Part shown: positions 24,945-52,419 of the stretch, one piece after another | Layout of the letters: each line of letters starts with the position of its first letter | How positions within the stretch are numbered: the stretch's first letter is position 1 | DNA from: Alphaproteobacteria bacterium | Lineage (GTDB): Bacteria > Pseudomonadota > Alphaproteobacteria > SP197 | DNA: 64,000 bases | Assembly (NCBI GenBank): GCA_965221115.1 | Contig: CBDCRU010000002.1 | Location: 452,045-516,044 of the forward strand | Reading direction: 5' to 3' | Notes under the pieces: generated by a model | What the model saw: only the letters and a program-made list of their open reading frames with translations | Databases searched by the model: none | Told to the model about the DNA's origin: nothing | Position numbers and translations under genes: made by a program

Positions 24945-25145
24945 ATGGCAAGACCTCGAGGAAAACAGAAGACTGAGCGGGTGACCATCAACCTAGATCC
25001 TCGCTCCTATGAGATTTTGCTCAACGTGGCCAAACGCAATCAGGCACCCGTCGCACAAGTCGCACGGAGAGCGGTGGTGGAATTTCTTCGGCGAGAAGAA
25101 CCATCCATGGATCAATGGACGCTACCGCTGGAACCACAGGCATGA
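24945..25145 (+). CDS. ribbon-helix-helix (CopG/Arc-like) DNA-binding protein, candidate controller of the methyltransferase operon
   Basis: 66 aa. TINLDPRSYEILLNVAKRN...VARRAVVEFL is a typical RHH. Its stop overlaps the M1 start (ATGA). Confidence 0.6.
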   Translation: MARPRGKQKTERVTINLDPRSYEILLNVAKRNQAPVAQVARRAVVEFLRREEPSMDQWTLPLEPQA

Positions 25146-26365
25146 GTCCATGGGAGCGGGTTGGTGCGTCCGCGGCCTTGGAGCAACTCAACATGGACTT
25201 CGGACCGGTGACGGAAGACTTCGAGTCCGAAACTGCCCGCGACTTCGATATGTCCCCGGAGGAAGTACTCCAAACCGTAGATTGGGACTTTCCCGAACGT
25301 AGCGTCCAGGAGCCATTGGAAGCCATCCATCCCTATCCCGCTAGGTTCATCTCTGAAATTCCGCGCTCTCTGCTGGACGCACTGCCGTTACCATCGGGAG
25401 CCATTGTCCTCGACCCATTCTGCGGCAGCGGAACCACGCTAGTCGAATGTCAGCGCCGTGGAATTCCTGCGATCGGCATCGATCTCAATCCGATCGCCTG
25501 CCTCATGAGCCGTGTCAAAACTACACCAATTGCTGCAGGTCTTCGGGCTCACGCACTTGCCGTAGCCGAACGTGCGAGGACGGGGCCTGCAGTCGCCATT
25601 CCCGACATTCCCAACCTGGATCACTGGTTCCAGCCAGACATTCAAGACCAGTTGGCAAGACTCCTGGATGCCATCGATTCCTTGCCTGTTCCCGAACAAG
25701 ACAGCTTGAAGCTTGCCCTGTCGAGCATCATTGTGCGCGTGTCGAATCAGGAGAGTGATACGCGGTACGCGGCGGTCTCGAAGGACGTAGGCCCGGATGC
25801 TGTGCGGTCCTTGTTTCTGAGGGCGACAGAACGCTTAGAAACGGCGTTGCGCGCACGGCGCTATCGACTGAGTTCCGTGAGTGTGATCCAAGGGGATACT
25901 CTCAGTGTAGAACCTTCAAAAATTCGGGCTCCCGTGGGACTCGTCATCACATCGCCACCGTACCCAAACGCGTACGAGTACTGGCTGTATCACAAGTACC
26001 GCATGTGGTGGTTGGGATTCGACGCGCTGAATGTCAAAGAGCGAGAAATCGGTGCTCGGGCTCATTTTTTCAAGAAGAACCACCATACGCCGGAAGATTT
26101 TTCCCGCCAGATGCGCCAAACATTCGCACTGTTGGAATGCATTGTGATGCCGGGTGGGTATGTCTGTTTCGTTGTAGGGCGTTCGCAGATCCACGGGCGA
26201 ATTGTCGACAACGCGAAAATCATCTCCGAGGCTGGCGCGACGTGTGGGTTCAGCGCCTATTTCGCCACCGACCGCCTCCTTGCGGCCCATCGTAAGTCGT
26301 TCAATCTCTCTCACGCAAACATCAAGAAGGAGACGATCCTAATCCTGAGGAAGGAACCCTTCTGA
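25142..26365 (+). CDS. DNA amino-methyltransferase M1 (N6-adenine or N4-cytosine)
   Basis: Motif I VLDPFCGSGTT precedes motif IV SPPYPNAY. Translationally coupled on both sides. Confidence 0.8.
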   Translation: MSPWERVGASAALEQLNMDFGPVTEDFESETARDFDMSPEEVLQTVDWDFPERSVQEPLEAIHPYPARFISEIPRSLLDALPLPSGAIVLDPFCGSGTTLVECQRRGIPAIGIDLNPIACLMSRVKTTPIAAGLRAHALAVAERARTGPAVAIPDIPNLDHWFQPDIQDQLARLLDAIDSLPVPEQDSLKLALSSIIVRVSNQESDTRYAAVSKDVGPDAVRSLFLRATERLETALRARRYRLSSVSVIQGDTLSVEPSKIRAPVGLVITSPPYPNAYEYWLYHKYRMWWLGFDALNVKEREIGARAHFFKKNHHTPEDFSRQMRQTFALLECIVMPGGYVCFVVGRSQIHGRIVDNAKIISEAGATCGFSAYFATDRLLAAHRKSFNLSHANIKKETILILRKEPF

Positions 26366-27852
26366 TGCGTCTAACCTGGCATGGATACGCCTACTACCCG
26401 TACGAGCGGGAACTTGCGACCAGAGAGATAGCGGCCTTGCTCGGAAACGGCAACATGCAGACGGTCAGCGACGGCATTGAACTACGCGGAACAGTTTCCG
26501 CTGGCCCGGCCGAACGTCTCACTTACTTCTCCGGACGGATCAACGGTAGCGGTTTCGAGCCGACCATCCAAGCAAAGCTGGAACAAGCGGCACGCATTGG
26601 CGAGAAGAAACAGGCAACCCGCTATTCGGTCCATGGCTTGCACGAATACAAAGGCAAGTTCAATCCACAAGTCGTACGGGCGCTGCTGAACATCTTCCAG
26701 GTCGAACCAGGGCAACGCGTCATGGACCCGTTTTGCGGAAGCGGGACGACACTTGTGGAGTGTGCACACTTGGGGGCGTTCGCAGTCGGCATGGACATCA
26801 ACCCGCTGGCTACCCTCATCGCACGCGCCAAGCTGAACGCGCTTTGCACTCCGGTCGGGAAGCTCGAGAGAGAATTCGCGCGTCTCTCGCGATGGGCGCT
26901 GCAGCCCACGCTCACGAACGACGATGTACGTCGCGACGGCCGGATCGAATATCTAGAACGGTGGTTCAATGTCGGGATACTCGAGCAAATCGAGCTAGTG
27001 CGTTCCGCCATCGAGCGCGTCGATTCCGTGAGCGCCCGGCTCGTTTTTCTGACAATAGCCAGCAATTTGCTGCGCGACTACTCCCAACAGGATCCTAACG
27101 ACCTGCGTACGCGACGGCGCAAGTCCCCGCTTCCAGAGCTTCCGTTCACAGTCGCATTCCTCAAGGCCGTCCCCCCATTCCTGAAACGAGTCCAAGCGGC
27201 CCAGGATGTGCTCGGCTCCAATCTCCCTCGAGGACACGTGATACAGCGTGATACCACGGCAATTGCGATGGAGGAGGCAGGAGCGCCCTTCGACGCAGCA
27301 GTCAGCAGCCCCCCGTATGCGATGGCCCTCCCGTACATCGACACCCAGCGATTGTCTCTGGTTTGGCTGGGCCTGTGTCTACCCGATCAACTGGCAGACC
27401 TGGAAGCGCGGATGATCGGCAGCCGTGAAATGCGTGGCCAAGCACACCGCGTGTTGCTGCGGCGGCTAAAGGACAATGCCGACAACCTGCCTAGCTCCGA
27501 ATTCGACATTTGCCTCAAGCTACACCGGACTCTTGGCGAGAACGACGGCTTTCGCCGCAAAGCCGTGCCGCTCTTGCTGTACCGCTACTTCGCATCCATG
27601 CAGGCGAGTTTCCGAAGACTTCGAACCATGATGAAACCAGGGGCTCCTTACGGCCTGATTGTGGGGCACAATCACACGACAATCGGCGGTGTCCGGCACG
27701 AACTCAATACCCCTATGCACTTGGCCAGACTGGCAGGTGCAGAAGGGTGGAACATAGACGAACTGATCCCCCTGCAGACGTATCGGCGATACGGATACCA
27801 CGCGAGTAACGCGGTCTCCGCGGAAAGCCTGGTCATTCTGCGTAACGCGTAA
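26365..27852 (+). CDS. DNA amino-methyltransferase M2 (paralogue of M1)
   Basis: Motif I MDPFCGSGTT, motif IV SSPPYAMALPY. Same architecture as M1. Its start overlaps the M1 stop (TGATG). Confidence 0.8.
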   Translation: MRLTWHGYAYYPYERELATREIAALLGNGNMQTVSDGIELRGTVSAGPAERLTYFSGRINGSGFEPTIQAKLEQAARIGEKKQATRYSVHGLHEYKGKFNPQVVRALLNIFQVEPGQRVMDPFCGSGTTLVECAHLGAFAVGMDINPLATLIARAKLNALCTPVGKLEREFARLSRWALQPTLTNDDVRRDGRIEYLERWFNVGILEQIELVRSAIERVDSVSARLVFLTIASNLLRDYSQQDPNDLRTRRRKSPLPELPFTVAFLKAVPPFLKRVQAAQDVLGSNLPRGHVIQRDTTAIAMEEAGAPFDAAVSSPPYAMALPYIDTQRLSLVWLGLCLPDQLADLEARMIGSREMRGQAHRVLLRRLKDNADNLPSSEFDICLKLHRTLGENDGFRRKAVPLLLYRYFASMQASFRRLRTMMKPGAPYGLIVGHNHTTIGGVRHELNTPMHLARLAGAEGWNIDELIPLQTYRRYGYHASNAVSAESLVILRNA

Positions 27853-28024: not shown

Positions 28025-30048
28025 GTTAACCCGACTTCCGCAACTCGTCGCGCGATTCGACTGATTTGACGGTTTTCCGGCCCGAGAAGCGGCGGTTTTC
28101 CGTGCGTTGTCTCTCCGGAACGGCGTGTAGTGCCGACCTACCCCCTTGATTGGGCTGGCGAAGATCCGGACTCTGCGCCCATGTTCGTGCGCTGCAAGAG
28201 ACGCTTCAAGGACGGCAAGGAGCACCGCTACTGGAGCGTGGTGGAGAACGTCCGGGTCCACGGCGGCCGGGTTGTTCAGCGTCAGGTGCTCTATCTCGGC
28301 GAGATCAACGACAGCCAGCGCGCGGCGTGGTGCCGCTCGATCGAGGTGGTGGAGGGCAAGTCACGATCGCGGCAGATGGCGCTGTTTCCCGAAGACCGGG
28401 AGGCGCCGGCACTGGCCTGCGAAGTGGTGAAGATCAACCTTGCGCAGGTGGCGCTTCACGACCCGCGCCAGTGGGGAGCGTGCTGGCTGGCGCTATCCTT
28501 GTGGGATCGCCTGGACCTGGACCGCTTCTGGGATGAGCGTCTGCCGCCGAGCCGGCAAGGCACGCGGTGGCTGGACATCCTGAAGATCCAGGTCTGCTAC
28601 CGGCTGATCGACCCGGGCAGCGAGTGGCGGCTTCACCGTCACTGGTACGAGCACAGCGCGCTTCGCGATCTTCTGGGCAGCGAGCGGGCGATCGCCGACG
28701 ACACGCTCTATCGCTGTCTCGACAAGCTTCTGGCGCACAAGCAGGACTTCTTCTCGTTCTTGCGCGACCGCTGGGCGACCCTGTTCGAGGCGCGCTTCGA
28801 CGTGTTGCTCTATGACCTGACCTCGACCTACTTCGAGAGCGATCCTGCGTTCGATGACAAGCGCCGCTTCGGCTACAGCCGGGACAAGCGGCCCGACTGC
28901 GTGCAGGTGGTGATTGCGCTGATCGTCACGCCGGAGGGCTTTCCGCTGGCCTATGAGGTGATGCCGGGGAACACCTCCGACGACGCCACGCTGGCGGCGT
29001 TCCTCGAGAAGATCGAGGATCAGTATGGCCGCTCCGACCGGGTGTGGATCATGGACCGCGGCATCCCCACCGAGGAGACGCTGGCCGCGATGCGCGAGGG
29101 CGATGCGCCGGTGCGCTACCTGGTGGGCACGCCCAAGGGCCGGCTGACGCGGCTCGAGAAGGTGTTCCTGGGCCTGCCCTGGCAGGAGGTGCGCCAGTCG
29201 GTGAACGTCAAGCTTCTGGTCGAGGATGGCGAACTCTACGTCCTGGTGCACAGCGAGGGGCGACAGGTGAAGGAACGCGGCATGCGCCGGCGCCGGCTGA
29301 AGAGACTGTGGCGTCGACTGGTCGAGTTGCAGGGACAGTCGAACAGCCGGGATCAGTTGTTGCTCAAGCTCGGCGGCGCCAGGAAGGAGGCGGGCCGGGC
29401 CTGGAGCCTGGTCGACATCGCCGTGCCCGGGACCGACAGGGAACTCGCCGCCAACGGCTTCTCATTCCGCCTGCGGCGCGACCGGCTGCGCCGGGTCCGC
29501 CGCCGCGAGGGCCGTTACCTGCTGCGATCCAACATGGTCGCCGAAGACCCCGCCACGCTGTGGCATCTGTACATGAAGCTCGTCGAGATCGAGCAGGCAT
29601 TCAAGGAACTCAAGCACGACCTCGCAATCCGCCCCATCTTCCATCAACGCGAGGAGCGCATCGAGGCGCACATCTTCGTCTCGTTCATCGCCTACTGTCT
29701 GCTGGTGACCCTGAAGAACCTCGCCCGGCCGCGCGCCTCGGGCCTCACCCCGCGCGCCATCCTCGAGGCCTTCGCCACCATCCAGATGGTGGACGTCCAT
29801 CTGCCCACCACCGACGGCCGGCACCTCGTGCTGCCGCGCCACACTCGACCGAACAAGGAGCACCAGCTACTGCTGCACCAGCTCGGCATGACCCTGCCGC
29901 AACAGCCTGCGCCGCGGATCTCCGCCTGACGACGAGCGGGGCCGCCTCTCCGTTCGGTCCCGTGTAGTGCCGACCTTCGGAGGGCCGATCAAGACTATTC
30001 AATGAGTTAGCATCCTCACGACCCCCGAGTTGCGGAAGTCGGGTTAAC
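28025..30048 (+). mobile_element. IS1634-family insertion sequence (IS4 superfamily) with perfect 23-bp terminal inverted repeats
   Basis: IR-L GTTAACCCGACTTCCGCAACTCG at 28025..28047 is the exact reverse complement of IR-R at 30026..30048. Subterminal direct motif CGTGTAGTGCCGACCT at both ends. Confidence 0.85.
28130..29929 (+). CDS. IS1634-family transposase
   Basis: 599 aa. Motifs LYDLTSTYFES, DKRPDCVQVVIALIVTPEGFPLAYEVMPGNTSD and DRGIPTEETL. Confidence 0.85.
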   Translation: MPTYPLDWAGEDPDSAPMFVRCKRRFKDGKEHRYWSVVENVRVHGGRVVQRQVLYLGEINDSQRAAWCRSIEVVEGKSRSRQMALFPEDREAPALACEVVKINLAQVALHDPRQWGACWLALSLWDRLDLDRFWDERLPPSRQGTRWLDILKIQVCYRLIDPGSEWRLHRHWYEHSALRDLLGSERAIADDTLYRCLDKLLAHKQDFFSFLRDRWATLFEARFDVLLYDLTSTYFESDPAFDDKRRFGYSRDKRPDCVQVVIALIVTPEGFPLAYEVMPGNTSDDATLAAFLEKIEDQYGRSDRVWIMDRGIPTEETLAAMREGDAPVRYLVGTPKGRLTRLEKVFLGLPWQEVRQSVNVKLLVEDGELYVLVHSEGRQVKERGMRRRRLKRLWRRLVELQGQSNSRDQLLLKLGGARKEAGRAWSLVDIAVPGTDRELAANGFSFRLRRDRLRRVRRREGRYLLRSNMVAEDPATLWHLYMKLVEIEQAFKELKHDLAIRPIFHQREERIEAHIFVSFIAYCLLVTLKNLARPRASGLTPRAILEAFATIQMVDVHLPTTDGRHLVLPRHTRPNKEHQLLLHQLGMTLPQQPAPRISA

Positions 30049-31244
30049 TTGAAGGACGGGTCAGCTGGAGTCGGCCATTCCAAGATCATCGGGTCACCCG
30101 TCGTTGGAATGTGAGACCGATGTTGTTCCGCGAAATCACGGATGGCCGTCACCGGGCGCTTGGGGAGCACCATCCGGACATCCCCATGCCCGGTCTCTCC
30201 GGGGGCGTGGCCGTACACCATCACATTAGTTTCGACGAGCTGTTCACAATGGAGCCCGCGGTCGTCGGCATAGCGCAAGAGCATCGGAAACTCGCAGCGC
30301 GGACGTTCGAACCTACCTTGAAAGATCCCGAAACGCATGGTTGAGAGTGTCGCCACCGGGATGCTCACATTGGCGGTCCCGCCCCGTCCTTCGAAGTGCC
30401 GCGCGCTATCGCGGTTGAGCAGGGCAATCAACCCGATCGCACCACCCGGAAGCGGCGAGCCTGTAAGGGCGTTTGGGCCACGCGTCGGATCGGTCGCATT
30501 GGGATCGAGGAGGACATACGATGGAGCTATCTGTGGGTTTGGAACTGACACCATTCCACCCGTCCCGACCGGAGGGAATCGGACTAGGGGAACAAGTCCA
30601 ACCAACAGTCCAGCGGTAGCGCCTTGCGCGACAACGGGTGGACGGATTCGTGACGATCGAGTGCGCCTCAAGATGCCGACCGCTGCCAATGCGGCAATAT
30701 CGCTGGGTTTGCTGACGATATGGGCGCCGCCTGTAGATTCATCAAACCAAACATCGACAGCGGACGCGATCTCAGCAAGGATGCGGCCCGAATCTCCTTT
30801 GGCCGTGTCAAGGATGATTCCAGCTTCAACGTTCAGGCCGGATACACCCGAAGATGTTAAGTTCGCAGAGCCCACATATGCGGTTTGTGTGCCATCGGTC
30901 CGAACCGCGTGATAGACCTTCGGGTGATACAAGCCGGTCGAATAACTGACGACGGCTATGTTTGCGTCCCTGCGCGGCCAGCCGATTAGGTCCGCCAGAT
31001 TTTCCAAATCCGGCTGTGCCGTGTCGCCTCCATTGGATCCCAAGACGCAACGGATTGCCATGTCGTGTTCGGTGAGGCTTTGCAGGAGCGGCATCAACGG
31101 AGCAAGCCCTTCGGAAGAGAAGTACCCTGATTGGAAGCGAAAGTAGGAAATGTCCTGGTCACACAAACTCTTTAGCCACGTACCCACGGCATGGGCGGGA
31201 TTCCTGCTGCCAGTATCAATGTACCACATCTCGGCTTCTCCCAA
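30049..31244 (-). pseudogene. PLD-family (HKD) nuclease, candidate restriction endonuclease, 3' end cut by the IS1634 insertion
   Basis: Single HKD motif LYHPKVYHAVRTDGTQTAYVGSANLTSSG about 100 residues from the N-terminus. The ORF reads straight into IR-R (...PADPSFK|LTRLPQL). Joining across the IS restores about 50 more codons ending near 27897. Confidence 0.55.
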
Positions 31245-31530: not shown

Positions 31531-31760
31531 CTAGCTGTTGAAGTGATCCGTCATGATGAACAGGCCCTTATCTGCGCCTCCCTGTAAGGCACCGCCAAAC
31601 TCTCGGATTTCTTTGGCACCAACGCTCCCACTCCACCGCTTGCACCAGAAACAGATCCGAAACGAAACAAGGTTCACACGAAGCACGCCAACACTATCGA
31701 TTCCTCCATCGCCTGACTTTCCGTGCACACATCGACTCCGGCGAATCCCCCTTCGCGCCA
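31531..31760 (-). pseudogene. Mrr-family restriction endonuclease catalytic-domain remnant
   Basis: The C-terminal GDGGIDSVGVLRVNLVSFRICFWCKRWSGSVGAKEIREFGGALQGGADKGLFIMTDHF matches the Mrr_cat core. The N-terminal part is absent. Confidence 0.5.
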
Positions 31761-32277
31761 GGGCCTCTGCGACAGCCGTGCGAATGCGCCCGGCAACATC
31801 GCTCCCAGTACAGCTCTGAGAGATGGTTTCCGGTTCTCCTCCCACTCTGGGGTACCCTCCTCTGGTTCCACGACGTCCAATTCTGCCACCTGCACGGCAT
31901 CGACCCCTACCCGAGGGCGCTCGATGTCCTTCAGCGGGCCTCGATCCATCTCGACCCAGCTTTGGCCCAGCTAACGCCGCGCCTGTGGCAAGACCACTTC
32001 GCCGATGACCCGATGACATCCGATGTCACCAGGGCCGTATCCGCGAAGGTGCTGCAGGCAGCCTGAATTACAGACTGGCCAGTCGGTCGGGACTCCCGGT
32101 ATCAAGGCATCGCTAAATGTGCATATACGTCGGAACTCCAGCCACGCTCCTTCACGATCAGTACCAAATACGTCCAAGTCCACAACACGAGCCGCCCTAT
32201 TCCTCAACGTCGTTCGGTGGCATCATACCTATCCCCATACTCAAACACCGAACTATACCTTACAAGGAACTTAACCA

Positions 32278-34446
32278 ATGCAGCGAGTGACGATCAATCT
32301 CGAGAACTGCTACGGCATAAGAAGTCTTCATAGAAGGCTCGATTATTCTGCCACTCAGGCATTTGCCCTGTACGCGCCAAACGGAGTGATGAAATCTTCT
32401 TTGGCAAAAACATTTCAAGATGCCGCCGAGGAACGGGATTCGCAAGACCGCATTTTTCCAAATAGAACGACCTTCCGCCAGATTTCTGATGAGAACAACC
32501 AAGAAATACAAGGAAGACGTATTTTAGTGGTATTTCCTTATGACGAGGACTTGGGTGTCAATGAGCAGACCTCCACGTTGCTTTTGGATCCAACATTAAA
32601 GAAAGAGTACGATGATCTGCTTCGAGCCACCGCTGAAGCCAAATCCATTTTGCTCAAGCAAATTAAAGAACAATCAAACTCCAAATTAGACATGGAAACA
32701 GAGATATCCTCTGCAATCATGCCCACTCCGAATGAATTCGACGCGGCGCTGATCCGCGTCAAAAGAGAAGTTGAGGAGCAGAAAGATGCTGTATTTTCAG
32801 ACTTACAGTATGACAAAGTATTCAATGAAAAGGTTCTGAAAGCTCTAAATGCGAGAGACCTAAAGAACGCCATACACGAGTATGCTCAACGCTACAATGA
32901 ACTGTTAGCCGCATCTATCTATTTCAAGAAGGGTACATTCGACTATTACAACGCCGCACAAATCGCGAAGAGTCTCTCAGACAACGGATTTTTCGATGCA
33001 AGGCATTCAGTTAGTCTCAATGCGGATACTGGTAATCAGGAAATCACAGACAGAGATCAATTAGAAGAAATAATTTCGCAAGAAAAGAATGCAATCCTCG
33101 CAGACGTCGCACTTCGCAGAAAATTTGACGACGTTGCGCGTCAATTAATGCGAAATGCTGAATTGCGGGAGTTCTACAGTTACGTCCGCGACAACGAGGC
33201 AATTTTATCGCGACTAAACAACCCCGAAGGGCTCAGGCAGGACGTACTCAAGGATTACCTTAAAGTTCATGAAGCACTCTATAGCGATTGGATGACCAAG
33301 TATGATGCCGCCCAGAAACGTCGCAAAGAGCTAGAAGATGAAGCGCACGCACAGAGAACCCAGTGGGAAGCGGTAATTGACATATTCAACGAACGCTTCT
33401 TTGTCCCGTTTAAGCTGGAAGCCAAGAACAAGACGGATGTTATGCTTGGTCGTACATCAATCATTAATCTTGGCTTTACCTACATTGATGGAGACGACAG
33501 CGCTGAACTTAATCACAACGAACTGCTCCAGTCTTTGAGTACTGGAGAAAGAAAAGCCTTGTACGTGTTAAATGTAATTTTTGAGATCGAAACTCGGAAA
33601 ACCGCAGGGCAAGAAACACTCATAGTAGTGGATGATCTGGCGGACTCATTCGACTACCGAAACAAGTATGCGATTATTCAATACTTACGAGATATATCTG
33701 GTGAGGGTCTATTCAAATTACTCATTATGACGCATAACTTTGATTTTCTTCGGACTATAGAGAGTAGATTTGTTGGGTATTCGAACTGTCTTATGGCGTC
33801 GAAGGATGAGACTGGTATAACGATCTCCAGAGCGTCTGGTATACGAAACATATTTGCAAGAGATTGGAAGCGTCACTTTTTTGACGACCCAAAGAAGAAA
33901 ATAGCCTCCATACCTTTCTTGCGTAACTTAGTAGAAATGACTACCGGCGAGGATGATGCGCGTTATGGGGAACTCACATCCATGCTCCATTGGAAAGATG
34001 GATCGGATACTATCACCGTAGGTCAATTGGACACAATATATAACAGCATTTGTCAGGAAGACGGACAATCGACAGCGCCGGCGCAGTTGGTGTTTGATCT
34101 GATAGTGGAGGAAGGAGATAAATGCTTAGGCACGCACTCCGGGGTCCAGATGGAAAACAAAATCGTTTTGGCAATCGCAATACGTCTATTATCTGAGCGC
34201 TTTATGATTGATAAAATTGCAGATCCAGCGTTTGTAGCAACGTTGACTGCAAATCAGGCCCATGGTTTGACAGAGGAGTTTAAGCGGCGTTTTTCTGGTG
34301 AAGACAGCACAATAAGTGTTCTTGATCGTGTCAGTCTTATGACACCTGAAAATATACATGTAAATTCTTTCATGTATGAACCCATAATCGATATGTCTGA
34401 TGACCATCTGCGAAAGTTGTATTCGGATGTCAAGAGATTGAAGTAG
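32278..34446 (+). CDS. AAA_13 / RloC-PrrC-like ABC ATPase with a long coiled-coil insertion and a C-terminal effector-like domain (722 aa)
   Basis: Markedly AT-rich. N-terminal ITINLENCYGIRSL then a degenerate P-loop YAPNGVMKSS. About 370-aa helical insertion. Signature LSTGERKALYVL, Walker B LIVVDDLADSFD, H-loop LLIMTHNF. The C-terminal about 230 aa has an R-x3-E ... H arrangement (IRLLSE...ANQAHG). Confidence 0.6.
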   Translation: MQRVTINLENCYGIRSLHRRLDYSATQAFALYAPNGVMKSSLAKTFQDAAEERDSQDRIFPNRTTFRQISDENNQEIQGRRILVVFPYDEDLGVNEQTSTLLLDPTLKKEYDDLLRATAEAKSILLKQIKEQSNSKLDMETEISSAIMPTPNEFDAALIRVKREVEEQKDAVFSDLQYDKVFNEKVLKALNARDLKNAIHEYAQRYNELLAASIYFKKGTFDYYNAAQIAKSLSDNGFFDARHSVSLNADTGNQEITDRDQLEEIISQEKNAILADVALRRKFDDVARQLMRNAELREFYSYVRDNEAILSRLNNPEGLRQDVLKDYLKVHEALYSDWMTKYDAAQKRRKELEDEAHAQRTQWEAVIDIFNERFFVPFKLEAKNKTDVMLGRTSIINLGFTYIDGDDSAELNHNELLQSLSTGERKALYVLNVIFEIETRKTAGQETLIVVDDLADSFDYRNKYAIIQYLRDISGEGLFKLLIMTHNFDFLRTIESRFVGYSNCLMASKDETGITISRASGIRNIFARDWKRHFFDDPKKKIASIPFLRNLVEMTTGEDDARYGELTSMLHWKDGSDTITVGQLDTIYNSICQEDGQSTAPAQLVFDLIVEEGDKCLGTHSGVQMENKIVLAIAIRLLSERFMIDKIADPAFVATLTANQAHGLTEEFKRRFSGEDSTISVLDRVSLMTPENIHVNSFMYEPIIDMSDDHLRKLYSDVKRLK

Positions 34447-34567
34447 GTTTGGTTCTGCAGAGAGTGTTCAGGTTCGGAGAACGGCCGTGTCAGCTGATAG
34501 CAGACCTGATTAGACGTTAAGCGAGATCACGAGACGCTAATGTCTCCCGATTTGCGTTTCGTGGTTC

Positions 34568-34592
34568 GAGGCTGCGGGGGCGTGGCAGCCTC
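34568..34592. terminator. GC-rich hairpin between convergent genes (GAGGCTGC-loop-GCAGCCTC), overlapping the stop of the minus-strand ATPase gene
   Basis: Perfect 8-bp stem seen in the sequence. No U-tract. Confidence 0.25.
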
Positions 34593-37500
34593 AACTTCCT
34601 ACGGTGGACGGTTGCCAACTGTGTTGGGCCTGTGTTTCTACTGGATCCGGTAGTTCGTGAATTCTGACTGCCGAACAAACGTCTTTGGCAATGGCGCAAA
34701 GATGTTGATGGTGCCCGAGATAGACGACCTGGCCGACCCTTGCCATGTCAGCAAAAACACGGAATGCTTCTCTTGCGCGGAAGTCGTCCGAGGTCTCGAG
34801 AATGTCGTCGGCGATGAAAGGGACCGGGCCGTGCTGGTCGACGAACTCCAGATAGCCCGCTACGCGCAAGGCGAGATAGAGCTGGAAACGAGCACCCTTT
34901 GACATCTGCGAGGCAATCTTAGCGTCTCCGCCGGCACTGATGCCGAGCAGCACTTCTCCCTTATCCGTCAACTGGGACTCCAACCGGGAATAGGCGCCTC
35001 GGCTGATTGTGCGGAAAGCCTCGGAGGCACGTTCCATCATGGTGCTGCGATGTTCGTCTCGATAGGTCTGCAACGCACGATCGGCGGCCTCGATGCCGAT
35101 TCGGGTGAGAACGTAGTCCAGTGCGCGCTCCTGGATGTCGAGAATACACGTGCGACGCTCCCCTTCGAGCCGAGCTACGGCTCCGTCACCACCTATCGCG
35201 TTGATAGCCTCTTTGGCGGTTTCCATTTCGTGATAGAGCTTCTGCGTTCGCTCCGAGATGTCGGCGAGGCGGGCCCCGGTCTCGGCAATCCTGTTCTCAA
35301 GGTCATCGTCGCTTGCGTCCGTGAGAGCGGCTTCCGCCGCGTCCAGCGATTCCACCTTCATCGCTTCGACCAAGCCGGCCTCGCGTTGGGACAGATCTTC
35401 GCGGAGGGTCTTGCGCCGTGATACCTGTTGCAGTTTCTCGTCCACTGCCCGAAGAGAATCCACGCCGAATGCCTCGAACATCGGAGAAGCAAGCGCGTGC
35501 AGCTCGGCCAGACCGCCTTCTACCGATGTGATTTCTTCAGAGAGAGCGGAGATTCTTTTGTTCAGCCCTTCGCGGGAGGTTTGATTGGCGACCGCCGCTA
35601 CCAAGCGAGCCTTGAGAGCATCACCCTGCACCACGGGGCGCTCGGGTTCGAATTCGCCGCCAAGTTCCTCCACCAGACCTCTTACCTCATCTGCGTAGGC
35701 GGCCTGATCGCTTTCCATTCGGACCACGCGGTTCTGAAGCTCGTCGCGTTTGGTCAGGGTGGAGTCGAGGAGCGTGACCTCTTCGAGTATTCGGCGGACC
35801 GCAGAGGTGGTGGGTTGGGGATCGAGATCTGCCAGCCAGGAACCGGACAGCCCTATCGTCCATTCCTCGCGCCAGGCTGCATCGTCATCGCCAGCTCGAC
35901 GCGCATCGCGTTGCCGACGGACCAGTTCGGCCTTTGCCCTGTCAAGATGTTCCTTCGCAGCGGTCGTCGCGGCTCGTCGTTCGGTGAAGAGCGCAAGGGC
36001 TCGGCGCGCGATCTCAATGAGCTCCTTTGGTTCACCGTCTGGATTGTGCGCAAGACTGGCTGCGGTCAAAGCTTCGCTGAGCCTTTGCCGATGGTCGAGG
36101 GCATCCCGCCGAGCGCGATCAATCTCCGCGCTCTCGCGACCCAGGCGGGCGAGCGTCTCCAGAATTCCGGCACGGCGCTCCATCCAACCCGACAATTTGG
36201 CAAGTGAGATGTCGGAGGGCATATCACCGGCGCCTGTACGGGACATGACAGCGACAGCGGAAGCAATCCGGCCTAGCACCGCCTGCTGGTTTCCGCGCGC
36301 CTGCACGAGTTCTTCTTCATTGCGTGCGATCTCCGTCTCCAAGTTCCGCAGCGCTTCGGCGGCTTGCCTTAACTCGGCCAACCCCGTCGCATGGGCGATA
36401 CGCCCGGATGTGGCTGCATCGTCGTCCTTCAACCGTTCTTCGAATGTGTCGGCGGACTCTTCGTCCAACACAGCGCGGTGAAGAGTCCATGCCTCGTCCC
36501 TCAGGACGCGCAGGCGCTCGGCCTCTTCATCTCCGACGACGCCGGTCTCCGCCGTTCGACGTTCGGCCTGTTCCGATAGGCGGCGGCTCTCCGCGGCAAG
36601 CCTGGTCTTTTCGCGGGCGATGCGCTCGATTTCCCGATGCGCTTCGTCGAGAGCAGAACTCCAATTCTGCATCTCCTCTTGTTCGGGAACATGAACGCCC
36701 GCCAGAGCTTCGGCTTCGCCACTCCAGGGATGAAGTTGCGCGAGTTGCTCGTCAATCTGGGCCTTTAGGTCGCGGCACTGCTTGTCGTGGAGCGCGAATC
36801 GCGCGGCGAAGTCGTCGGACTGTATCTCCTTCATGACCTCGTTCAGACGTCCGATCACATCGTCATTCGTGTCAGCGCCGTTCGAGGTCTTGGCGAATTC
36901 ACCAGTAGCAGTCGCGGCCGTGTCCTTTGCAGCTTCCAGTTCTTCGGCAGATGCCCTTACTCGTTCTTCGATCCCGGACCGCTGTTCAATAAGTTCATAC
37001 AGCACTCCCACCGTACCGGCGGGAATGACAAGGGTTCGGGAATCGGTGTCGGCGGCCTTGTTCAACCGCCGGACGACGGCTTCGATGGTGCCCACGTGTT
37101 CGGCGAGGTTCGTGCGGCGCTTCGGAAGGTCGTCTTCGGCTGTCACGTATCGGGCGCGCCCCTTGTCGAGCGAAGCGAGGCGGTCCTTCAGTTGGAGGAT
37201 CGCTTCGTCAGGAACCAGAGCTTCCCGCTCTTCGTGGCGGTTTCGTTGCTGGTCCCGTAGCCCTTTGACTCTCTCGGTGAGCTTGGGTTCATCGGCTATG
37301 AGGTTGGAGATCTGCGTGAACCAGAGCTCCGGCACCTCTGGCAATCCTTGCAAATCGGCAAGCTCTTCCCGTATGGGACGGATTTGCGCGAGTTGGCGCA
37401 AACCATCCATGCGACGCACGGCCTCTTCCCGACCCGCTTCAAGCTTGGCGCGTAGGGTCATCGCTTCGTCATAGGCGCTGCTGGCGGCGTCGCGTTCGGC

Positions 37501-38136
37501 AGCCAGACGGGCATGGGCGCTCGCGGCGGTGTCTAGCGTTTTCTTCTCACGTTCAAGCTGTTCAAGTCGGACCTTGAGCTCGTGGAGCTCAGTACTGCGG
37601 CTTCTCACCTTATGAAAGCTCTCGGCGGAGTCGCGAAGCCGGTTCAGGGTTTCGCTGAGTTCGACAAGTCCGGCACCCGTCGCGAAGAGGAGCTGACCCA
37701 GATTGCCCTTGCTTCGGAGGATTTGTTCTCCGCCCGCTTCCAGGCTGTCGTCGTCGAGCGAGAACATGGCCCTGTAGATTTCGCGGTTCATGCCTCCCAG
37801 GGCGTTGACAAGCAGGTCGTCCGACACCGATCTGCCGCTTTCGTCAAGGAGGCTGCCCTGGCGCCTTCTGATACGGACGAGACGCCGGACCGTGCCGCCG
37901 ATATTCAGGTCGGCCTCGACCTGCATAGCTTCGTAGCCATGCGCAAAGCCGTAGGGACTGCGGTGCTCAAATGCGAAGAGTAAGTCGAGGAAGCCTGCAA
38001 GGGCCGTGGACTTCCCGGATTCGTTGGGACCGTAGACCACGTGCAAGTCAGGTTTGCCTTGGATGGGTTCGCCGAAGTCGATGACGCGGTCAGAGAATAT
38101 TCCGTAACGGGTCAGAGCAAGACGGTCCAAGCGCAT
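34591..38136 (-). CDS. SbcC/YhaN-like coiled-coil ABC ATPase (about 1181 aa from the coupled ATG)
   Basis: N-terminal Walker A GPNESGKST. Very long Ala/Glu/Arg-rich coiled coil without a CxxC hook. C-terminal signature LSKGARFQLYLAL, Walker B FIADDILETSDD, H-loop VYLGHHQH. Its start overlaps the stop of the upstream phosphoesterase gene (ATGA). Confidence 0.8.
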   Translation of the reverse strand: MRLDRLALTRYGIFSDRVIDFGEPIQGKPDLHVVYGPNESGKSTALAGFLDLLFAFEHRSPYGFAHGYEAMQVEADLNIGGTVRRLVRIRRRQGSLLDESGRSVSDDLLVNALGGMNREIYRAMFSLDDDSLEAGGEQILRSKGNLGQLLFATGAGLVELSETLNRLRDSAESFHKVRSRSTELHELKVRLEQLEREKKTLDTAASAHARLAAERDAASSAYDEAMTLRAKLEAGREEAVRRMDGLRQLAQIRPIREELADLQGLPEVPELWFTQISNLIADEPKLTERVKGLRDQQRNRHEEREALVPDEAILQLKDRLASLDKGRARYVTAEDDLPKRRTNLAEHVGTIEAVVRRLNKAADTDSRTLVIPAGTVGVLYELIEQRSGIEERVRASAEELEAAKDTAATATGEFAKTSNGADTNDDVIGRLNEVMKEIQSDDFAARFALHDKQCRDLKAQIDEQLAQLHPWSGEAEALAGVHVPEQEEMQNWSSALDEAHREIERIAREKTRLAAESRRLSEQAERRTAETGVVGDEEAERLRVLRDEAWTLHRAVLDEESADTFEERLKDDDAATSGRIAHATGLAELRQAAEALRNLETEIARNEEELVQARGNQQAVLGRIASAVAVMSRTGAGDMPSDISLAKLSGWMERRAGILETLARLGRESAEIDRARRDALDHRQRLSEALTAASLAHNPDGEPKELIEIARRALALFTERRAATTAAKEHLDRAKAELVRRQRDARRAGDDDAAWREEWTIGLSGSWLADLDPQPTTSAVRRILEEVTLLDSTLTKRDELQNRVVRMESDQAAYADEVRGLVEELGGEFEPERPVVQGDALKARLVAAVANQTSREGLNKRISALSEEITSVEGGLAELHALASPMFEAFGVDSLRAVDEKLQQVSRRKTLREDLSQREAGLVEAMKVESLDAAEAALTDASDDDLENRIAETGARLADISERTQKLYHEMETAKEAINAIGGDGAVARLEGERRTCILDIQERALDYVLTRIGIEAADRALQTYRDEHRSTMMERASEAFRTISRGAYSRLESQLTDKGEVLLGISAGGDAKIASQMSKGARFQLYLALRVAGYLEFVDQHGPVPFIADDILETSDDFRAREAFRVFADMARVGQVVYLGHHQHLCAIAKDVCSAVRIHELPDPVETQAQHSWQPSTVGS

Positions 38137-39401
38137 CAGTCGGCTCCGTCCGCGCGGGTTTCTTGCAAGTGTGCCAGAACGATCTGACACCCCTCCTCGA
38201 TCAGTTGGTCAAGGATTTCGTTGCGCCTCTGCTCGCTGTCGCCAAAGACATCGCGCGCCGCGGGCGGCAGGGCCTTTTCGATCTCGTCGAGCACTTCGAG
38301 GGCCGAACGCCGGAAAGAGTCCGACGGCGCGATCTTGCTGCGAATCGTGTCCGCGACTTCCCCGATGGGTCCTACGGTGGGATCCCCTGGTGCGGTCACC
38401 TCCAGTGCGATTTTCTCGATCCAGGTTTGGCCTATCAGCTCAGCGCGGTGCAACGCTTCTGCTCGCACGAGCTCCGGATCGCGACGCAACCGCCACGCCA
38501 GCTCGGTTTCGCCTCGCATTTCGAGGCGTACCACCAGGTGATCCGACTGAGCCGCAGTCCGTGCGTCTGCCAGCTCCGCGGCGATACGCTCCACCATGGC
38601 GCGCTGGTCGGAAACGCCGCCCAAGTCGATTTGTATGCGTTCGAACTGGGCAACGCTTGTGGTGTGGGAACGGCAATCAATCGCACCGTCGTCTGCAACG
38701 CGAACAAGCGTCACTGATTTTGGTCCGGCCTCGCCGATATCGCGACCTTGCGGCATGCCGGGCATCACAATGTACGGCCTTCGGCTGTACACTTCGCGTG
38801 TATGGAGATGCCCCAGACACCAATAGTCGAAGCCAGTGCCGGCGACATCGGAAACGCTGCAAGGCGCATAGTCGTCGTGGTCGGCGGAACCCGCCAAGCT
38901 TGTATGAAGAAGGCCGATATTGAAGGCGTCTGGAACAGGGCTCCGGAAGCGAGGTATCAGGCTCTCCGGGGCATGGGGCCTTGCGAAGCTGATGCCGTGA
39001 ATGGCTACAGGGATCGTGCCACGGTCGTAGTCAAGCTCGACGGTCTCGGCTCGACCGCCGAAAACCTTCACGCCTTCCGGAAGAGTGAGCTCGCGCGTGA
39101 TCCGTGATTGGGCGTCGTGATTGCCGCGGATGATGAAGGTACGAATGCCGGCCTCGGTCAATCGCTGAAGCTGCGCGGCCAGAAACAGGGCGGTCTTCAT
39201 CGATGTCTGATCGCCATCGTAGAGGTCGCCCGCGATCATCAACGCATCCACTCGTTCGTCGAGGCAAAGATCGATGGTCCGCTCGAAGGCGAGACGGGTC
39301 GCATCGCCGATCAGTTCTGCAAGATCGGGATTTAGCAACGCGAGCGAGCGCAGCGGCGAGTCGAGATGGACATCCGCAGTGTGAACGAAGCTGAAAGACA
39401 T
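38136..39401 (-). CDS. SbcD/Mre11/YhaO-like metallophosphoesterase (DNA repair exonuclease family)
   Basis: Motif I FVHTADVHLD, IAGDLYD, GNHD and the later His motifs. About 421 aa from MSFSFVH. Confidence 0.8.
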   Translation of the reverse strand: MSFSFVHTADVHLDSPLRSLALLNPDLAELIGDATRLAFERTIDLCLDERVDALMIAGDLYDGDQTSMKTALFLAAQLQRLTEAGIRTFIIRGNHDAQSRITRELTLPEGVKVFGGRAETVELDYDRGTIPVAIHGISFARPHAPESLIPRFRSPVPDAFNIGLLHTSLAGSADHDDYAPCSVSDVAGTGFDYWCLGHLHTREVYSRRPYIVMPGMPQGRDIGEAGPKSVTLVRVADDGAIDCRSHTTSVAQFERIQIDLGGVSDQRAMVERIAAELADARTAAQSDHLVVRLEMRGETELAWRLRRDPELVRAEALHRAELIGQTWIEKIALEVTAPGDPTVGPIGEVADTIRSKIAPSDSFRRSALEVLDEIEKALPPAARDVFGDSEQRRNEILDQLIEEGCQIVLAHLQETRADGAD

Positions 39402-39513
39402 GGCGGGCCTAGTGTCAGTTCGTGACCTGCTCTTCACCACACTGGCGTCGTGGCGGGTACCCTTACGAGTTCGCCCGCATCATGGGTCAGCTCAGGCTGT
39501 ATCGGCAATTCAA

Positions 39514-47612: not shown

Positions 47613-49349
47613 GTCATAGGAGAGAACAATTCCGGGAAAACTAACGTCCTGCATGCTATCCGCCTGTGCATTGATACAGGACTTTCGTCTACGTACCGAT
47701 CCCTTTCCCCAAATGATATTCATTCCGCCGTCGATATCGCGCATCCTGAGCAAGTACTCATCGGCCTGGAGATAGCGGACTTTGCCGGAAGAACGAACGA
47801 AGAGGCACTAGTCGGCGCGTGGCAGCACAAGCCTGGTCTTGCGCGGCTAATTTATCGCTACAGGCCGAAACTCAGTGTGCGTGAGGATCTTGAGGTCGGG
47901 GAAATCGAGGCGGGCAAACTTACGCACGAAGACTATCACTGGGAGATTACCGGGGGCGGCGATCCTGCACACGATCTTGCCGACATACCGTGGAATCAGG
48001 ATGTCGGCTCGTCCATCCGGTTTTCAGATCTTCAGTCATTTCTGGTGGTCTTTCTGCCGGCCCTTCGTGATGTTGAGGGGGACCTGCGGCAGTTCCGCAG
48101 TTCTCCGCTGGCGCGTCTGATCGACGCGATGGAGATTGGACCCAACGCGCAGGAAGAGCTGCTTGACGCGCTGCGTAAGGCGAATGAGGAAATCGCAACA
48201 GCTGAAACCATTGACGAAATCGCCAAAGCGATCGACGCATCATTTGAGAGGGTGACAGGACCGGCGTTCAACATGAATGTTGCACTCGGCCTTGCGGAGC
48301 CGTCCTTTCAGTCGATCATCCGCGCCTTGCGCATCTTGCTCACCAACGCCGCGATGCAGGATTTCGATCCGTCCTCAAACGGAATGGGGCTCAATAACAT
48401 TCTCTATGTCTCTATTCTCATTGAGTACTTCCACAAGCGCGTTGCGCGGCAGAAGTCAGCCGGACAGATCATCCTTTTCGAAGAGCCTGAAGCGCACTTG
48501 CATCCGCAACTACAACTCACATTGTTCAAGGCCCTTAGTGCCTTGCCGTTCCAGTCAATACTAACCACTCACAGCACACATATCACGGCCAATGCGCCGC
48601 TCGGCTCATATGTAGTTCTGTCGCAGACGGGCCGCCCGGCAATAGCTTCATGCATGCCCGCTGAAGATGCGAGACTGGAACAGGCAGAAATCGACGATCT
48701 TGAGCGCTACCTAGACGCCACACGATCCAATTTGCTGTTCGCCCGCAAAGTGATGCTTGTCGAAGGGCCTGCAGAACTGTTCCTAATTCCCGCCCTGCTC
48801 AAGCATGTGATGGATTTCGACTTTGACCGAGACGGTATATCGCTCATACCGATCTACGGTGTACATTTCCACGTCTACGCCAAGCTCTTTTCTGGACAGG
48901 CACTACCGAAGAAGTGCGCCATCATCACGGACGGCGACTTAAGGCCCAGCGATGCTGACCCCGAACTGGAAGGGGAAGACGACTTCCCGCCACCGCCTGA
49001 TCTTGAGGCCTTGCAAAATGAGTTCGTACGCGTGTTTGCCTGCAAGACAACCTTCGAACGGGCTCTCGTGTTCGAAGGGACGCTCGAAATGTTTGCATTG
49101 ACCGCCGAGGATATTGGCGCCCCCATCGTCGCCAGACGGCTGAGGGATGGCACCGAACAACTGGACAACGACGATCTTGGCGATGACGAGAAGAGCAAGA
49201 TACTGAGACCGCTCCGCAAAATGGTCCTAAACACCGCCAAGCGGTACGGAAAGGCCCGCTTCGCTCAGGTCACCGCTCGCCATGCCGATAAGGCCGAGGT
49301 CGTCCCCAGATATCTAGTCGATGCTGCAGAATGGTTGCGCTCACCATGA
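47613..49349 (+). pseudogene. gajA: gajA remainder (OLD-family ABC ATPase + Toprim nuclease), lacking its own start because of the IS21 insertion
   Basis: The P-loop VIGENNSGKTN at 47613.. is in frame with ORF 47877..49349 but has no in-frame start back to the stop at 47445. Downstream: Walker B ILFEEPEAHLHP, H-loop TTHSTH, Toprim KVMLVEGPAE and AIITDGD. Confidence 0.8.
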
Positions 49350-51118
49350 GGTTGACCGACGAACAAAGGGAAGCGGTGCGCTGTGCAGACGATCTCATGC
49401 TGACTGCTTGTCCCGGTAGCGGAAAAACTCGGGTTATCATCTCCAAACTGTCGCGCACAATCGAAGAGGTAAGAGGCACGCCCCGTGCTGTGGCCTGCAT
49501 CACCTATACAAACGCCGCGATGCACGAAATAGAAGCTCGGCTGCGCCATCATATCCAGCCGGGCGACGACGCCTACTACGATGTCTGCACCATCCATTCG
49601 TTTTGCCTGAACAATGTATTCCGGCCGTATTGTCACCTAATCAAGGGCTACAAAGGCGGCTTTAGAGTACTGACACCGGACAGCGCCGATTTTGAGCGGC
49701 TGGTTACGGCAACTTGTGAGCGGCATAACCGATTTAATCTCACGTTCAGGGACTTTGAGGACTTTACTCAACTGCGTATGAGTGTGAAGGGGGAGCCAGT
49801 TGGTCACGCCCTTGATCGCGGCGCCCTGACGGCGGAGATGGCGCAGGAGTTCTGGAATCGTATCCGGGAGGAGGGGTTCGTTGATTTTGCCAATATAATC
49901 TTTTACGCATATCTTCTTCTGAAGACGCGCCCGGAAATCCTCAGCTACATCTCGGCAAAGTTCGCTTGGATTCTCGTTGACGAGTTCCAAGATACAACCA
50001 GCCTACAGGTGGAAATCCTCTCGCTGATTGCCGATGCAGGTCGGACGCACTTTCTCCTCGTCGGCGATCCATGTCAGTCGATCTTCCGGTTTGCCGGAGC
50101 GCGGCCCGATCTTGCCGACGAGTTTGCCGAACGCATAGGAGCGCGCACGGATTTGCAGCTCTCCGGAAATTTCCGGTCAAGTCCGCCGGTGATTGCCCAC
50201 GCCAACAACCTGTATCCTCGCACACCCCCGATGAAAGCCGTCGGACGCGCGAAGAAGTACACCAACAAACCGGTTTGGCTAAGCGGTGAAACAGCTTTTG
50301 AGGTCATCGCGGACTATTTTCTGCCAGCCCTTGAGGGGCTGGACATTCCGGTCGGTGACGCCGCCATTCTCGCGCCGACCTGGTATTCACTGTTTCCCCT
50401 TGGGCGTCGGCTTCGGGAGTACGGTGTGAGCATCGTCGGTCCCGGTGCGCGACCTTACCGCCGTAATCGTCTTTTTGCGCCTCTTGCTGAGCAGGTGTGT
50501 GCCTACATGATGGAACCCGATCCGGAGGCCATCATCGGGATCGAGCGCACCCTGTTTAACACTGTGTTGAATGCGACGGGGCGAACTTGTTTCGATCTCT
50601 TCTCGTACCGCGGGCGCATCATCGTCTTTCGTCTCCTCGACAGCGCCCGGCATCTTCATGATGCTCACATGGGTGGCATCGCTTGGCTCGAGGCCGGCGC
50701 CCGCGCGTTCACTGAAGTTCTGATCGATGAGGAGTATCTAAGTCCAGCGGAAAGCGATCTCTTCGCGATGTCTGCCGAAGAAATGAAGGCGGACATGCGC
50801 AACAACAAAGTGGATTTAGCTAACATGACAATGTCCGATCTCGGTATCTACGCGAGTCCCGAGGCGGCACTCAAGCTTTCAACGCTCCACAACGCGAAGG
50901 GCCGGGAGTACCGCGCTGTCGCCATGATCGACCTCCATGAAGGGCGAATTCCCTTTTACCAGGCCATGACCGACGAGGAAGTTGCGGAAGCTAAACGGCT
51001 CTTTTACGTCGGCGTAACCAGATCCGAGCAATTCCTGCTCTACGTCACCGATAGAAGCCACTACCGTAATACGCCGACCCGCTTTCTTCGGGTCGCGAGT
51101 GGCGTAGGCATGTGTTAG
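49346..51118 (+). CDS. gajB: Gabija GajB, UvrD-like SF1 helicase
   Basis: ATG overlaps the gajA stop (ATGA). Motif I ACPGSGKT, motif II VDEFQD, Q-motif LTDEQREAV. 590 aa. Confidence 0.8.
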   Translation: MRLTDEQREAVRCADDLMLTACPGSGKTRVIISKLSRTIEEVRGTPRAVACITYTNAAMHEIEARLRHHIQPGDDAYYDVCTIHSFCLNNVFRPYCHLIKGYKGGFRVLTPDSADFERLVTATCERHNRFNLTFRDFEDFTQLRMSVKGEPVGHALDRGALTAEMAQEFWNRIREEGFVDFANIIFYAYLLLKTRPEILSYISAKFAWILVDEFQDTTSLQVEILSLIADAGRTHFLLVGDPCQSIFRFAGARPDLADEFAERIGARTDLQLSGNFRSSPPVIAHANNLYPRTPPMKAVGRAKKYTNKPVWLSGETAFEVIADYFLPALEGLDIPVGDAAILAPTWYSLFPLGRRLREYGVSIVGPGARPYRRNRLFAPLAEQVCAYMMEPDPEAIIGIERTLFNTVLNATGRTCFDLFSYRGRIIVFRLLDSARHLHDAHMGGIAWLEAGARAFTEVLIDEEYLSPAESDLFAMSAEEMKADMRNNKVDLANMTMSDLGIYASPEAALKLSTLHNAKGREYRAVAMIDLHEGRIPFYQAMTDEEVAEAKRLFYVGVTRSEQFLLYVTDRSHYRNTPTRFLRVASGVGMC

Positions 51119-51791: not shown

Positions 51792-52236
51792 CCTGACCGA
51801 CAGCAGATCACTTGCTTATGGTGCAGTCGCGCATGCGTCTGAATTCCTCCTGCGGGATGGGTTGGTTCAAGCCCAAGTCTCGAGTAATGATCTTCACGGT
51901 CTCAAATCTGTCTGATTTTGGGGCAGTTCGCAGGTAAGCATCCGCCGAGGTCGGCTTCGGGACCGCACGGTCTACGCACACGGGGTGAACATGGACGTGT
52001 TGAATGACAGCGTTTTCTTATCTGTTCGAACAAAAACGAGGAAACAGGGTCAATTCGGCTCGATCACGGGGCAGCCACTTCACACCAGCCTCATGGCATA
52101 CATTCTTGCTCTTGAAGTCGGTCCCCTGGTTCAAGAGGATGCGGCAGCTCATTGACCCTGACTCCTGGACAAACGTCGGTGGCAATGTTGCAGAGATGCT
52201 GAAGGTGGCGGGGATGGATTGCCTGTCCTACCTTAG

Positions 52237-52408: not shown

Positions 52409-52419
52409 CGGCGTGTCTT

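Follow-up and report, generated by a model that had tools for sequence, protein, structure and literature searches.

What is the function of the lowest-GC gene in a 64,000-nucleotide stretch of an alphaproteobacterial genome (NCBI GenBank assembly GCA_965221115.1, contig CBDCRU010000002.1, positions 452,045 to 516,044 of the forward strand), and does its product act alone? The gene lies at 32278..34446 on the plus strand of this stretch (herein the window, whose numbering is used for all coordinates). It begins with an ATG codon and encodes a 722-residue protein (herein S46) with an ATP-binding cassette (ABC) ATPase head, an insert, and a C-terminal HEPN-like domain. An earlier note on this DNA had given the same open reading frame (ORF) and had called it the lowest-GC gene in the window; both statements hold, with a G+C content (GC) of 0.435 and a third-codon-position value (GC3) of 0.458. 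The core genes of the window have a GC of 0.64 to 0.68 and a GC3 of roughly 0.7 to 0.9, and the other island genes have a GC of 0.56 to 0.61. The earlier note saw a stand-alone defence gene resembling RloC and PrrC, which are the classic ABC-ATPase-HEPN nucleases of abortive infection. In outline that view survives (an ABC head, a HEPN-superfamily domain, no obligate partner, a defence island), and several of its details do not. Our analysis leans modestly toward S46 being a single-polypeptide, ATPase-gated HEPN RNase for abortive infection, similar to PrrC and RloC. We favor this because S46 matches a predicted defence family over its full length, is scored as defensive by a second predictor, and has the head fold of Rad50, SbcC, SMC, and PtuA; because its family aligns colinearly with RloC, shares details of its motifs with PrrC, and has invariant C-terminal residues; and because its genes occur in defence islands and mobile elements and show signs of horizontal transfer in their composition and distribution.

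By sequence, the S46 gene is a member of the PADLOC family PDC-S46: the hidden Markov model (HMM) matches residues 1 through 721 at profile positions 1 through 718 of 719 (E 2e-261, 867.7 bits). PHROG 38705, of unknown function, also matches end to end (E 7e-171). The PDC models derive from a “guilt by embedding” screen for genes nested in BREX, DISARM, and type I restriction-modification (R-M) loci, and its authors call the set of 145 candidates untested (Payne et al. 2024 preprint, 10.1101/2024.01.29.577857). In that work PDC-S46 is a computationally defined single-gene phage defence candidate, without a described function or domain analysis. A literature search for “PDC-S46” found no paper naming it, and one validation study of PDC systems tested other candidates. 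The DefensePredictor supplement gives an Escherichia coli homologue (WP_096983205.1) a score of 14.8 and labels it a “predicted novel defense gene”; the remote match that comes nearest is RloC (Prob 99.4), covering 12.8% of the protein. This homologue is absent from the supplementary file that we took as the list of tested systems. The family is therefore flagged as defensive by two independent computational screens.

The family is large and widely scattered. A word-indexed search returned more than 3,900 homologues, and an exhaustive search (E up to 1e-30) grouped the family into at least 1,013 clusters at 50% identity; almost all of these have lengths of 710 to 760 residues and match residues 1 through 721. 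They are named “hypothetical protein,” “AAA family ATPase,” or “phage infection protein” in their source records. Among 185,579 species-representative genomes, 373 stretches encode an S46 relative; the hosts include Alpha-, Beta-, Gamma-, and Deltaproteobacteria, Acidobacteriota, Nitrospirota, Planctomycetota, Actinomycetota, and Elusimicrobiota, among others. Relatives are found on 29 plasmids, in one phage record, and in only 2 viral contigs; in E. coli, 6 of 5,426 complete genomes carry the gene. In every host examined the GC of S46 is below that of its neighbors, and this composition, together with the wide and patchy phyletic spread, points to horizontal transfer. Forty E. coli chromosomes match only the first 369 nucleotides of the enterobacterial S46 gene, with ∼86% identity; these matches may be a truncated remnant or a 5′ module shared with a different gene.

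The ATPase head was examined in a family alignment of 141 sequences, comprising the query and 140 cluster representatives that are 32 to 49% identical to it. The motifs, all encoded on the plus strand, read APNGVMKSS in Walker A (A33-P-N-G-V-M38-K39-S-S41; 32374..32400), LSTGE in the ABC signature (L420-S-T-G423-E424; 33535..33549), VVDD and ADSFD in Walker B and the D-loop (hhhhD452-D453 and A-D456-S-F-D459; 33619..33654), and THN in the H-loop (T485-H486-N487; 33730..33738). The Walker A sequence is the one read previously from the letters, and its interpretation as degenerate has to be abandoned. Met38 is present in 139 of the 141 members; N35, G36, M38, K39, and S41 are each at least 95% conserved; and the family consensus is A-[PS]-N-G-x-M-K-[TS]-S. 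As the Met is kept family-wide, the P-loop is, judging from the alignment, a selected family trait. The other motifs had been described as canonical, and they are conserved across the family: the L, S, G, and E of the signature (consensus L-S-x-G-E), the D-D of Walker B, the A-D-S-F-D of the D-loop, and the T-H-N of the H-loop are all at least 95% conserved, with the Walker B and D-loop residues in 140 or 141 members and the H-loop His and Asn in all 141. In an AlphaFold2 model of S46 (mean predicted local distance difference test [pLDDT] score of 81), the head finds its best Foldseek matches in the Protein Data Bank (PDB) among the heads of Rad50, SbcC, SMC, and PtuA, in agreement with the N-terminal ABC head proposed earlier. 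Sequence searches of the PDB with the protein, the family profile, and the profile of the C-terminal domain returned nothing useful, and Pfam yields for the query only a sub-threshold SMC_N match. Membership of AAA_13 (PF13166), also proposed, was not upheld: the query has no match to this family at E up to 1. Matches at E up to 0.01 are seen in 4 of 33 homologues, and among six homologues whose scores were checked, one reached 36.9 bits and the others 28 to 32 bits, where the gathering threshold is 36 bits.

The C-terminal all-α domain (residues ∼520 through 722; 33835..34443, plus strand) is predicted confidently (pLDDT 89.9, predicted TM score [pTM] 0.88). Its model has the four-helix up-and-down arrangement of the HEPN fold, for which the evidence is moderate only, and the domain is a probable member of the HEPN superfamily. 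The top Foldseek match in the PDB is the HEPN protein 2q00, which does not reach significance. Sequence methods link the domain to nothing but PDC-S46; all 33 C-terminal fragments scanned against Pfam and PADLOC match PDC-S46 and no other family. Within the domain R549, H571, K628, R636, E640, H694, N696, E701, and D705 are invariant or nearly so, and two constellations of conserved residues can be recognized, both on the plus strand. Constellation 1, R549-N550-x2-E553 ... H571 (33922..33990), has its Arg in 141, its Asn in 136, its Glu in 120, and its His in 140 of the 141 members, with a spacing of x17 between R549-x3-E553 and H571. Constellation 2, R636-x3-E640 ... T689-P-E-N-I-H694-x-N696 ... 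E701-P ... D705 (34183..34392), has its Arg in 140 and its Glu in 138 members; H694, N696, E701, and D705 are present in all 141, and the Glu-to-His spacing varies from 46 to 62 residues, with a mode of 53. The R-x3-E ... H arrangement put forward in the earlier note is thus half retained: R636 and E640 are conserved, and the histidine chosen, H662 (QAHG), falls in a variable column (R, G, A, or Y). The histidines that do not vary are H571 and H694. An internal duplication into two tandem HEPN-like halves was also considered and was rejected, as hhalign detects no profile similarity between the two halves.

The head is split, as had been claimed, by an inserted segment, which proves shorter than the coiled coil of about 370 residues that was expected. 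The insert spans ∼280 residues (∼96 through 375; 32563..33402, plus strand) and is 271 to 290 residues long across the family. AlphaFold2 predicts a short helical stalk, a helical cap, and a β-hairpin: there are two helices of 27 to 29 residues, the longest in the insert, many short helices, and a small hairpin, so the structure prediction does not bear out a long coiled coil. The two longer helices could form the stalk. The absence of a CxxC hook, noted earlier, extends to the whole family (0 of 141 members). The most conserved part of the insert is an apex motif, FKKGTFDYYNAxQIAKSLxxNGFF (residues 216 through 239).

An E. coli fragment of RloC given in the DefensePredictor supplement was the starting point for recovering RloC sequences, and every sequence fetched has a CxxC motif near residue 260. 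Aligned with hhalign, the S46 family and RloC are colinear from S46 residue 2 through 580 and RloC residue 3 through 694 (E 7.6e-6, Prob 84%), with high confidence over Walker A and from Walker B to the H-loop and low confidence elsewhere. The S46 apex motif aligns with the residues on either side of the RloC hook, and a 13-residue gap falls exactly at the RloC sequence CPFCQQ; the confidence here is low to moderate, and the correspondence of the two regions is only suggestive. Constellation 1 is aligned, with low confidence, to the RRILE sequence of RloC. R549 follows the H-loop His by 63 residues in S46, the RRILE motif does so by about 73 residues in RloC, and R320 of PrrC follows H251 by 69. 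The published triad motif of RloC is Arg-X3-Glu-X36-52-His, with X31 in PrrC, and constellation 2 (46 to 62) resembles it in spacing. By position, the PrrC/RloC-like triad suggested for R636-x3-E640 has a more likely counterpart in R549-N550-x2-E553.

Several results weigh against S46 being a PrrC/RloC-like RNase. The C-terminal domain alone gives no significant hhalign match to the RloC nuclease domain (Prob <1%, E 0.2 to 0.5), either with a profile of 11 sequences or with one of 121 (120 database fragments and one reference), and no PADLOC PrrC or RloC model is matched by S46. The AAA_13 matches of the homologues span profile positions 277 through 582 of 713, which belong to the ATPase and not to the C-terminal nuclease part. 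The canonical Rx4-6H motif of HEPN domains is absent, with no conserved Arg 4 to 7 residues before H571 or H694 in the 141 members, and the active site could be either constellation, both being candidates from the alignment. In the head, the P-loop Met and an Asp in place of the catalytic Glu may mean that nucleotide is bound without hydrolysis. The literature search found no experiment on any member of the family.

The scheme that we infer for S46 would comprise an RNase activity with its target and trigger, gating by the ATPase, and an anti-phage effect. By analogy with PrrC and RloC, the ABC heads of two protomers would associate in a head-to-tail dimer. The HEPN-like domain would be kept inactive by the ∼280-residue insert, as sensor, together with nucleotide that is bound or slowly hydrolyzed at the unusual but conserved Walker A (A-P-N-G-x-M-K-[ST]-S) and the DD Walker B. 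A phage-derived or DNA-damage cue would switch the head and release the C-terminal domain, which might then cut RNA without a metal ion, so that translation would stop in the infected cell. tRNA is the likeliest substrate, though as a specific target it is a tentative proposal.

The S46 gene sits in a defence island. On its left is a truncated Mrr-type restriction endonuclease gene (31531..32019, minus strand), which matches Mrr_cat profile positions 12 through 90 of 115 and only positions ∼200 through 270 of PADLOC models that are ∼320 long; we regard it as part of the setting and not of the S46 system. On its right, convergent with it, are genes for a Rad50/SbcC-like AAA_27 ATPase (34591..38190, minus strand; Pfam AAA_27 E 1e-59; likely start at 38136) and, in one operon with it, a Mre11/SbcD-like phosphoesterase (Pfam Metallophos; 38136..39440, minus strand). 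This confirms the decayed Mrr and the convergent SbcCD-like pair described previously; no CxxC is found in the AAA_27 ATPase. Elsewhere S46 adjoins MmeI, GmrSD, methyltransferases, transposases or insertion sequence (IS) elements, a relaxase, BREX remnants (BREX in E. coli), and a helicase with DEAD, Helicase_C, and MZB (DUF1998) domains that may be DISARM DrmA-like. In locus L091, which is on an F-like conjugative plasmid of Providencia (NZ_CP097292.1), the homologue (5998-8184) is part of the leading region and is flanked by a fragment of a type I R-M M subunit and an antirestriction gene.

Does S46 need a partner? To the left of the gene, a conserved leader or promoter region (32128..32277, plus strand) travels with it, as seen in alignments with two other loci, L001 and L011; a sigma-70 consensus was sought in this region and none was found. 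We rejected the idea that a small upstream ORF (32023..32274, 83 residues) encodes a partner or antitoxin: the translation is of low complexity, the ORF is not conserved as a gene, and a homologous locus has no gene called there. ORFs within 4.5 kb of S46 were clustered over ∼84 distinct loci, a biased sample in that the loci are the 80 closest to the query, and no universal partner gene emerged. That the homologues might always co-occur with a partner missing here, which the earlier note had named as grounds for giving up its view, is thus not what the loci show. Its description of a single-gene module needs qualification, as ∼20% of the loci, the window included, carry an adjacent SbcCD-like pair.

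This pair is the source of the alternative that survives best, itself unlikely: that S46 is not autonomous and works with an Mre11/Rad50-type nuclease, here AAA_27 and Metallophos and elsewhere SbcCD. In one version, S46 would stand guard over that nuclease and respond to its inhibition by a phage, in the way that PrrC guards EcoprrI; in another, it would be an effector to which the nuclease signals DNA ends, an input that would substitute for the built-in zinc hook of RloC. The Mre11/Rad50-type pair is indeed the commonest neighbor: the pair or its large subunit is found within 4.5 kb in 17 of the ∼84 loci, mostly directly adjacent to S46 and convergent with it; by our rough reckoning, chance alone would produce such an adjacency at less than 1% per locus. 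Two distinct subtypes are involved, with a hook-less AAA_27-type large subunit in 11 loci, true SbcCD with a CPxC hook in 5, and 1 more found by HMM search. Loci with the pair turn up in 11 or more separate clades of the S46 tree, and the identity of the neighbors tracks that of S46 (92/89/91, 81/73/83, and 63/55/64 percent). A 7.9-kb block with all three genes of the window (32128-40013) is 89% identical to metagenomic contig L001, in which the left flank is different. RloC, moreover, is reported to be activated by DNA breaks. Against such a dependence, ∼80% of the sampled loci, biased as they are, have no SbcCD-type pair nearby. Among 46 independent metagenomic AAA_27 loci whose 3′ flank extends for at least 2.5 kb, 0 contain S46, which was on this basis rejected as a regular component of such loci. 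The GC of S46 is always well below that of the AAA_27/SbcCD pair, which suggests separate origins. A second, decayed AAA_27 gene in the window also fits a more general explanation. This 3′ fragment, a frameshifted pseudogene (52130..52419, minus strand), comprises the last ∼95 residues with 57 to 68% identity to the intact copy at 34591-38190, and is convergent to a Gabija-like pair, mirroring the arrangement of S46 and AAA_27. The 3′ flank of AAA_27-type genes may therefore be a general landing site for defence genes, and the adjacency need not reflect a specific functional link.

A more far-reaching form of this coupling is improbable. It would make S46 proteins hook-less RloC relatives that gave DNA-end sensing over to Mre11/Rad50-type nucleases, guarding or listening to an SbcCD-like complex that is encoded next door in about one-fifth of the loci and elsewhere in the genome otherwise. 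A phage that blocked or overloaded this complex would provoke translation shutdown through a non-canonical HEPN site formed from both Arg/Glu/His constellations. If true, the coupling of S46 and SbcCD would be a new sensor-effector link, from double-strand-break processing to abortive infection at the level of RNA. The recurrent SbcCD-type adjacency in any case supplies a concrete and testable hypothesis for the trigger.

About as doubtful is the proposal that the C-terminal domain has no catalytic role and serves, as a HEPN-like or unrelated helical module, to bind nucleic acid or protein. S46 would then not be a toxin RNase; it would handle DNA for mobile elements in the manner of SMC/Rad50, for example in repair, partition, or exclusion. 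The missing Rx4-6H motif speaks for this proposal, since HEPN domains without the motif have been proposed as binding modules (Anantharaman et al. 2013), as do the moderate evidence for the HEPN fold, the DNA-end nucleases next to S46, and the homologue in a plasmid leading region. According to the same survey, however, the catalytic residues are displaced in some HEPN families; Arg, Glu, His, and Asn kept invariant at 32 to 49% identity are typical of catalysis; and the defence-island context and the two independent defence predictions also tell against the proposal. An abortive-infection RNase of the ABC-HEPN type remains the interpretation that we prefer.

The window has further features. 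Two adjacent type II DNA methyltransferase genes (25115..27852, plus strand; PADLOC MTase_II, E about 1e-131 each) belong to the island of S46 and are followed there by an apparently intact IS with perfect 23-bp terminal inverted repeats (28025..30048; DDE_Tnp_1 transposase at 28130-29929) and by a PLD/NgoFVII-like endonuclease ORF (29745..31244, minus strand). With ∼300 nucleotides of this ORF lying inside the IS, truncation of the endonuclease is possible, and the methyltransferases and endonuclease are probably one R-M system split by the IS. The Gabija-like pair (47877..51118, plus strand) occupies a second low-GC patch (0.56) and encodes a GajA-like protein with AAA_15 and an OLD-like TOPRIM, followed by a GajB-like UvrD-family helicase. 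The ORF at 54703-56787 (minus strand) has no Pfam match and a GC3 of 0.44 at a GC of 0.64, which suggests a wrong frame; the true gene may instead be the overlapping ORF at 54801-56912 (minus strand). In six other loci (L029, L034, L053, L058, L059, and L067), S46 is adjoined, at a median of 50 bp and in mixed orientation, by a DUF2130 protein of ∼430 residues composed of a zinc ribbon, a coiled coil, and the DUF2130 domain.

Among known systems, the closest structural matches of the head are Rad50/SbcC/SMC and PtuA (Septu, retron Ec78). In these proteins the coiled coil is long and bears a hook or hinge, or the nuclease is a partner in trans, whereas S46 has a short capped stalk, no hook, and a fused effector-like domain at its C terminus. 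PADLOC PDC-S06, a separate and untested candidate family of similar model length, matches S46 more weakly (E 1.3e-12) over residues 414 through 580, at the same profile positions; this segment comprises the C-lobe of the ATPase and R549...H571, and the remainder of S46 is unmatched. The two-module architecture recurs in the ABC-HEPN families APECO1_4465 and ERFG_01251, which are found in mobile islands and prophages (Anantharaman et al. 2013); APEC O1 is not among the E. coli S46 carriers in the matches listed.

EcoPrrC, the tRNA-Lys anticodon nuclease, likewise fuses an ABC NTPase in cis to a HEPN-class RNase domain; in PrrC and RloC the NTPase and the nuclease must be in cis, and the head dimerizes. 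Its Walker A (AxxGxGKT) starts with Ala, as in S46, the Met of S46 excepted; its Walker B Asp215-Asp216 and H-loop Thr250-His251 correspond to the DD and TH of S46, and its R320-N321-x2-E324 to R549-N550-x2-E553. PrrC differs in being only ∼400 residues long, without an insert, and in being always embedded in a type Ic hsd locus that silences it; no hsd genes were found beside S46 in the window. It also has the HEPN Rx6H motif (R349-x6-H356), whereas S46 has no Arg 4 to 7 residues before either invariant His.

RloC has the same layout: an ABC head split by a helical insert and followed by a nuclease-type domain, encoded by a single gene that is rarely linked to R-M systems, with an LSxGE signature, a DD Walker B, a THN H-loop, and an R-x3-E motif ∼63 to 73 residues after the H-loop in common with S46. 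That S46 is simply an RloC (AAA_13) member minus the zinc hook, with the same wobble-nucleotide-excising tRNase activity, is nonetheless very unlikely: the colinear alignment, the gap at CPFC, the matching distance of R549-x3-E553 from the H-loop, and the few homologues that touch AAA_13 favor it, but the query matches neither AAA_13 nor the PADLOC RloC and PrrC models, the hook that defines and regulates RloC is absent family-wide, and the C-terminal similarity is not significant. RloC is an anticodon nuclease with a CxxC zinc hook and a Walker A of GxNGSGKTT, with Gly where S46 has Met; its C-terminal region is ∼135 residues long compared with ∼200 in S46, ∼60 to 70 fewer, and lacks the extra invariant residues of S46, whose His is, unlike that of RloC, without a preceding Ser. 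Taken as a whole, the comparison tips slightly toward S46 being both a distant, hook-less relative of RloC, with PrrC-like logic, and a stand-alone ABC-ATPase-HEPN effector of abortive infection. The family is already catalogued as a candidate; as a design, it is a new variant of the ABC-HEPN (RloC/PrrC) kind. S46 would be a naturally occurring RloC-type design that lacks the hook, in which the odd P-loop is strictly conserved and the nuclease-like domain is larger and has no Rx4-6H motif, and proteins of ∼720 residues annotated as “phage infection protein,” “AAA family ATPase,” or “hypothetical protein” that carry YAPNGxMK and MTHNFDF can be reannotated as RloC-like ABC-HEPN defence candidates.

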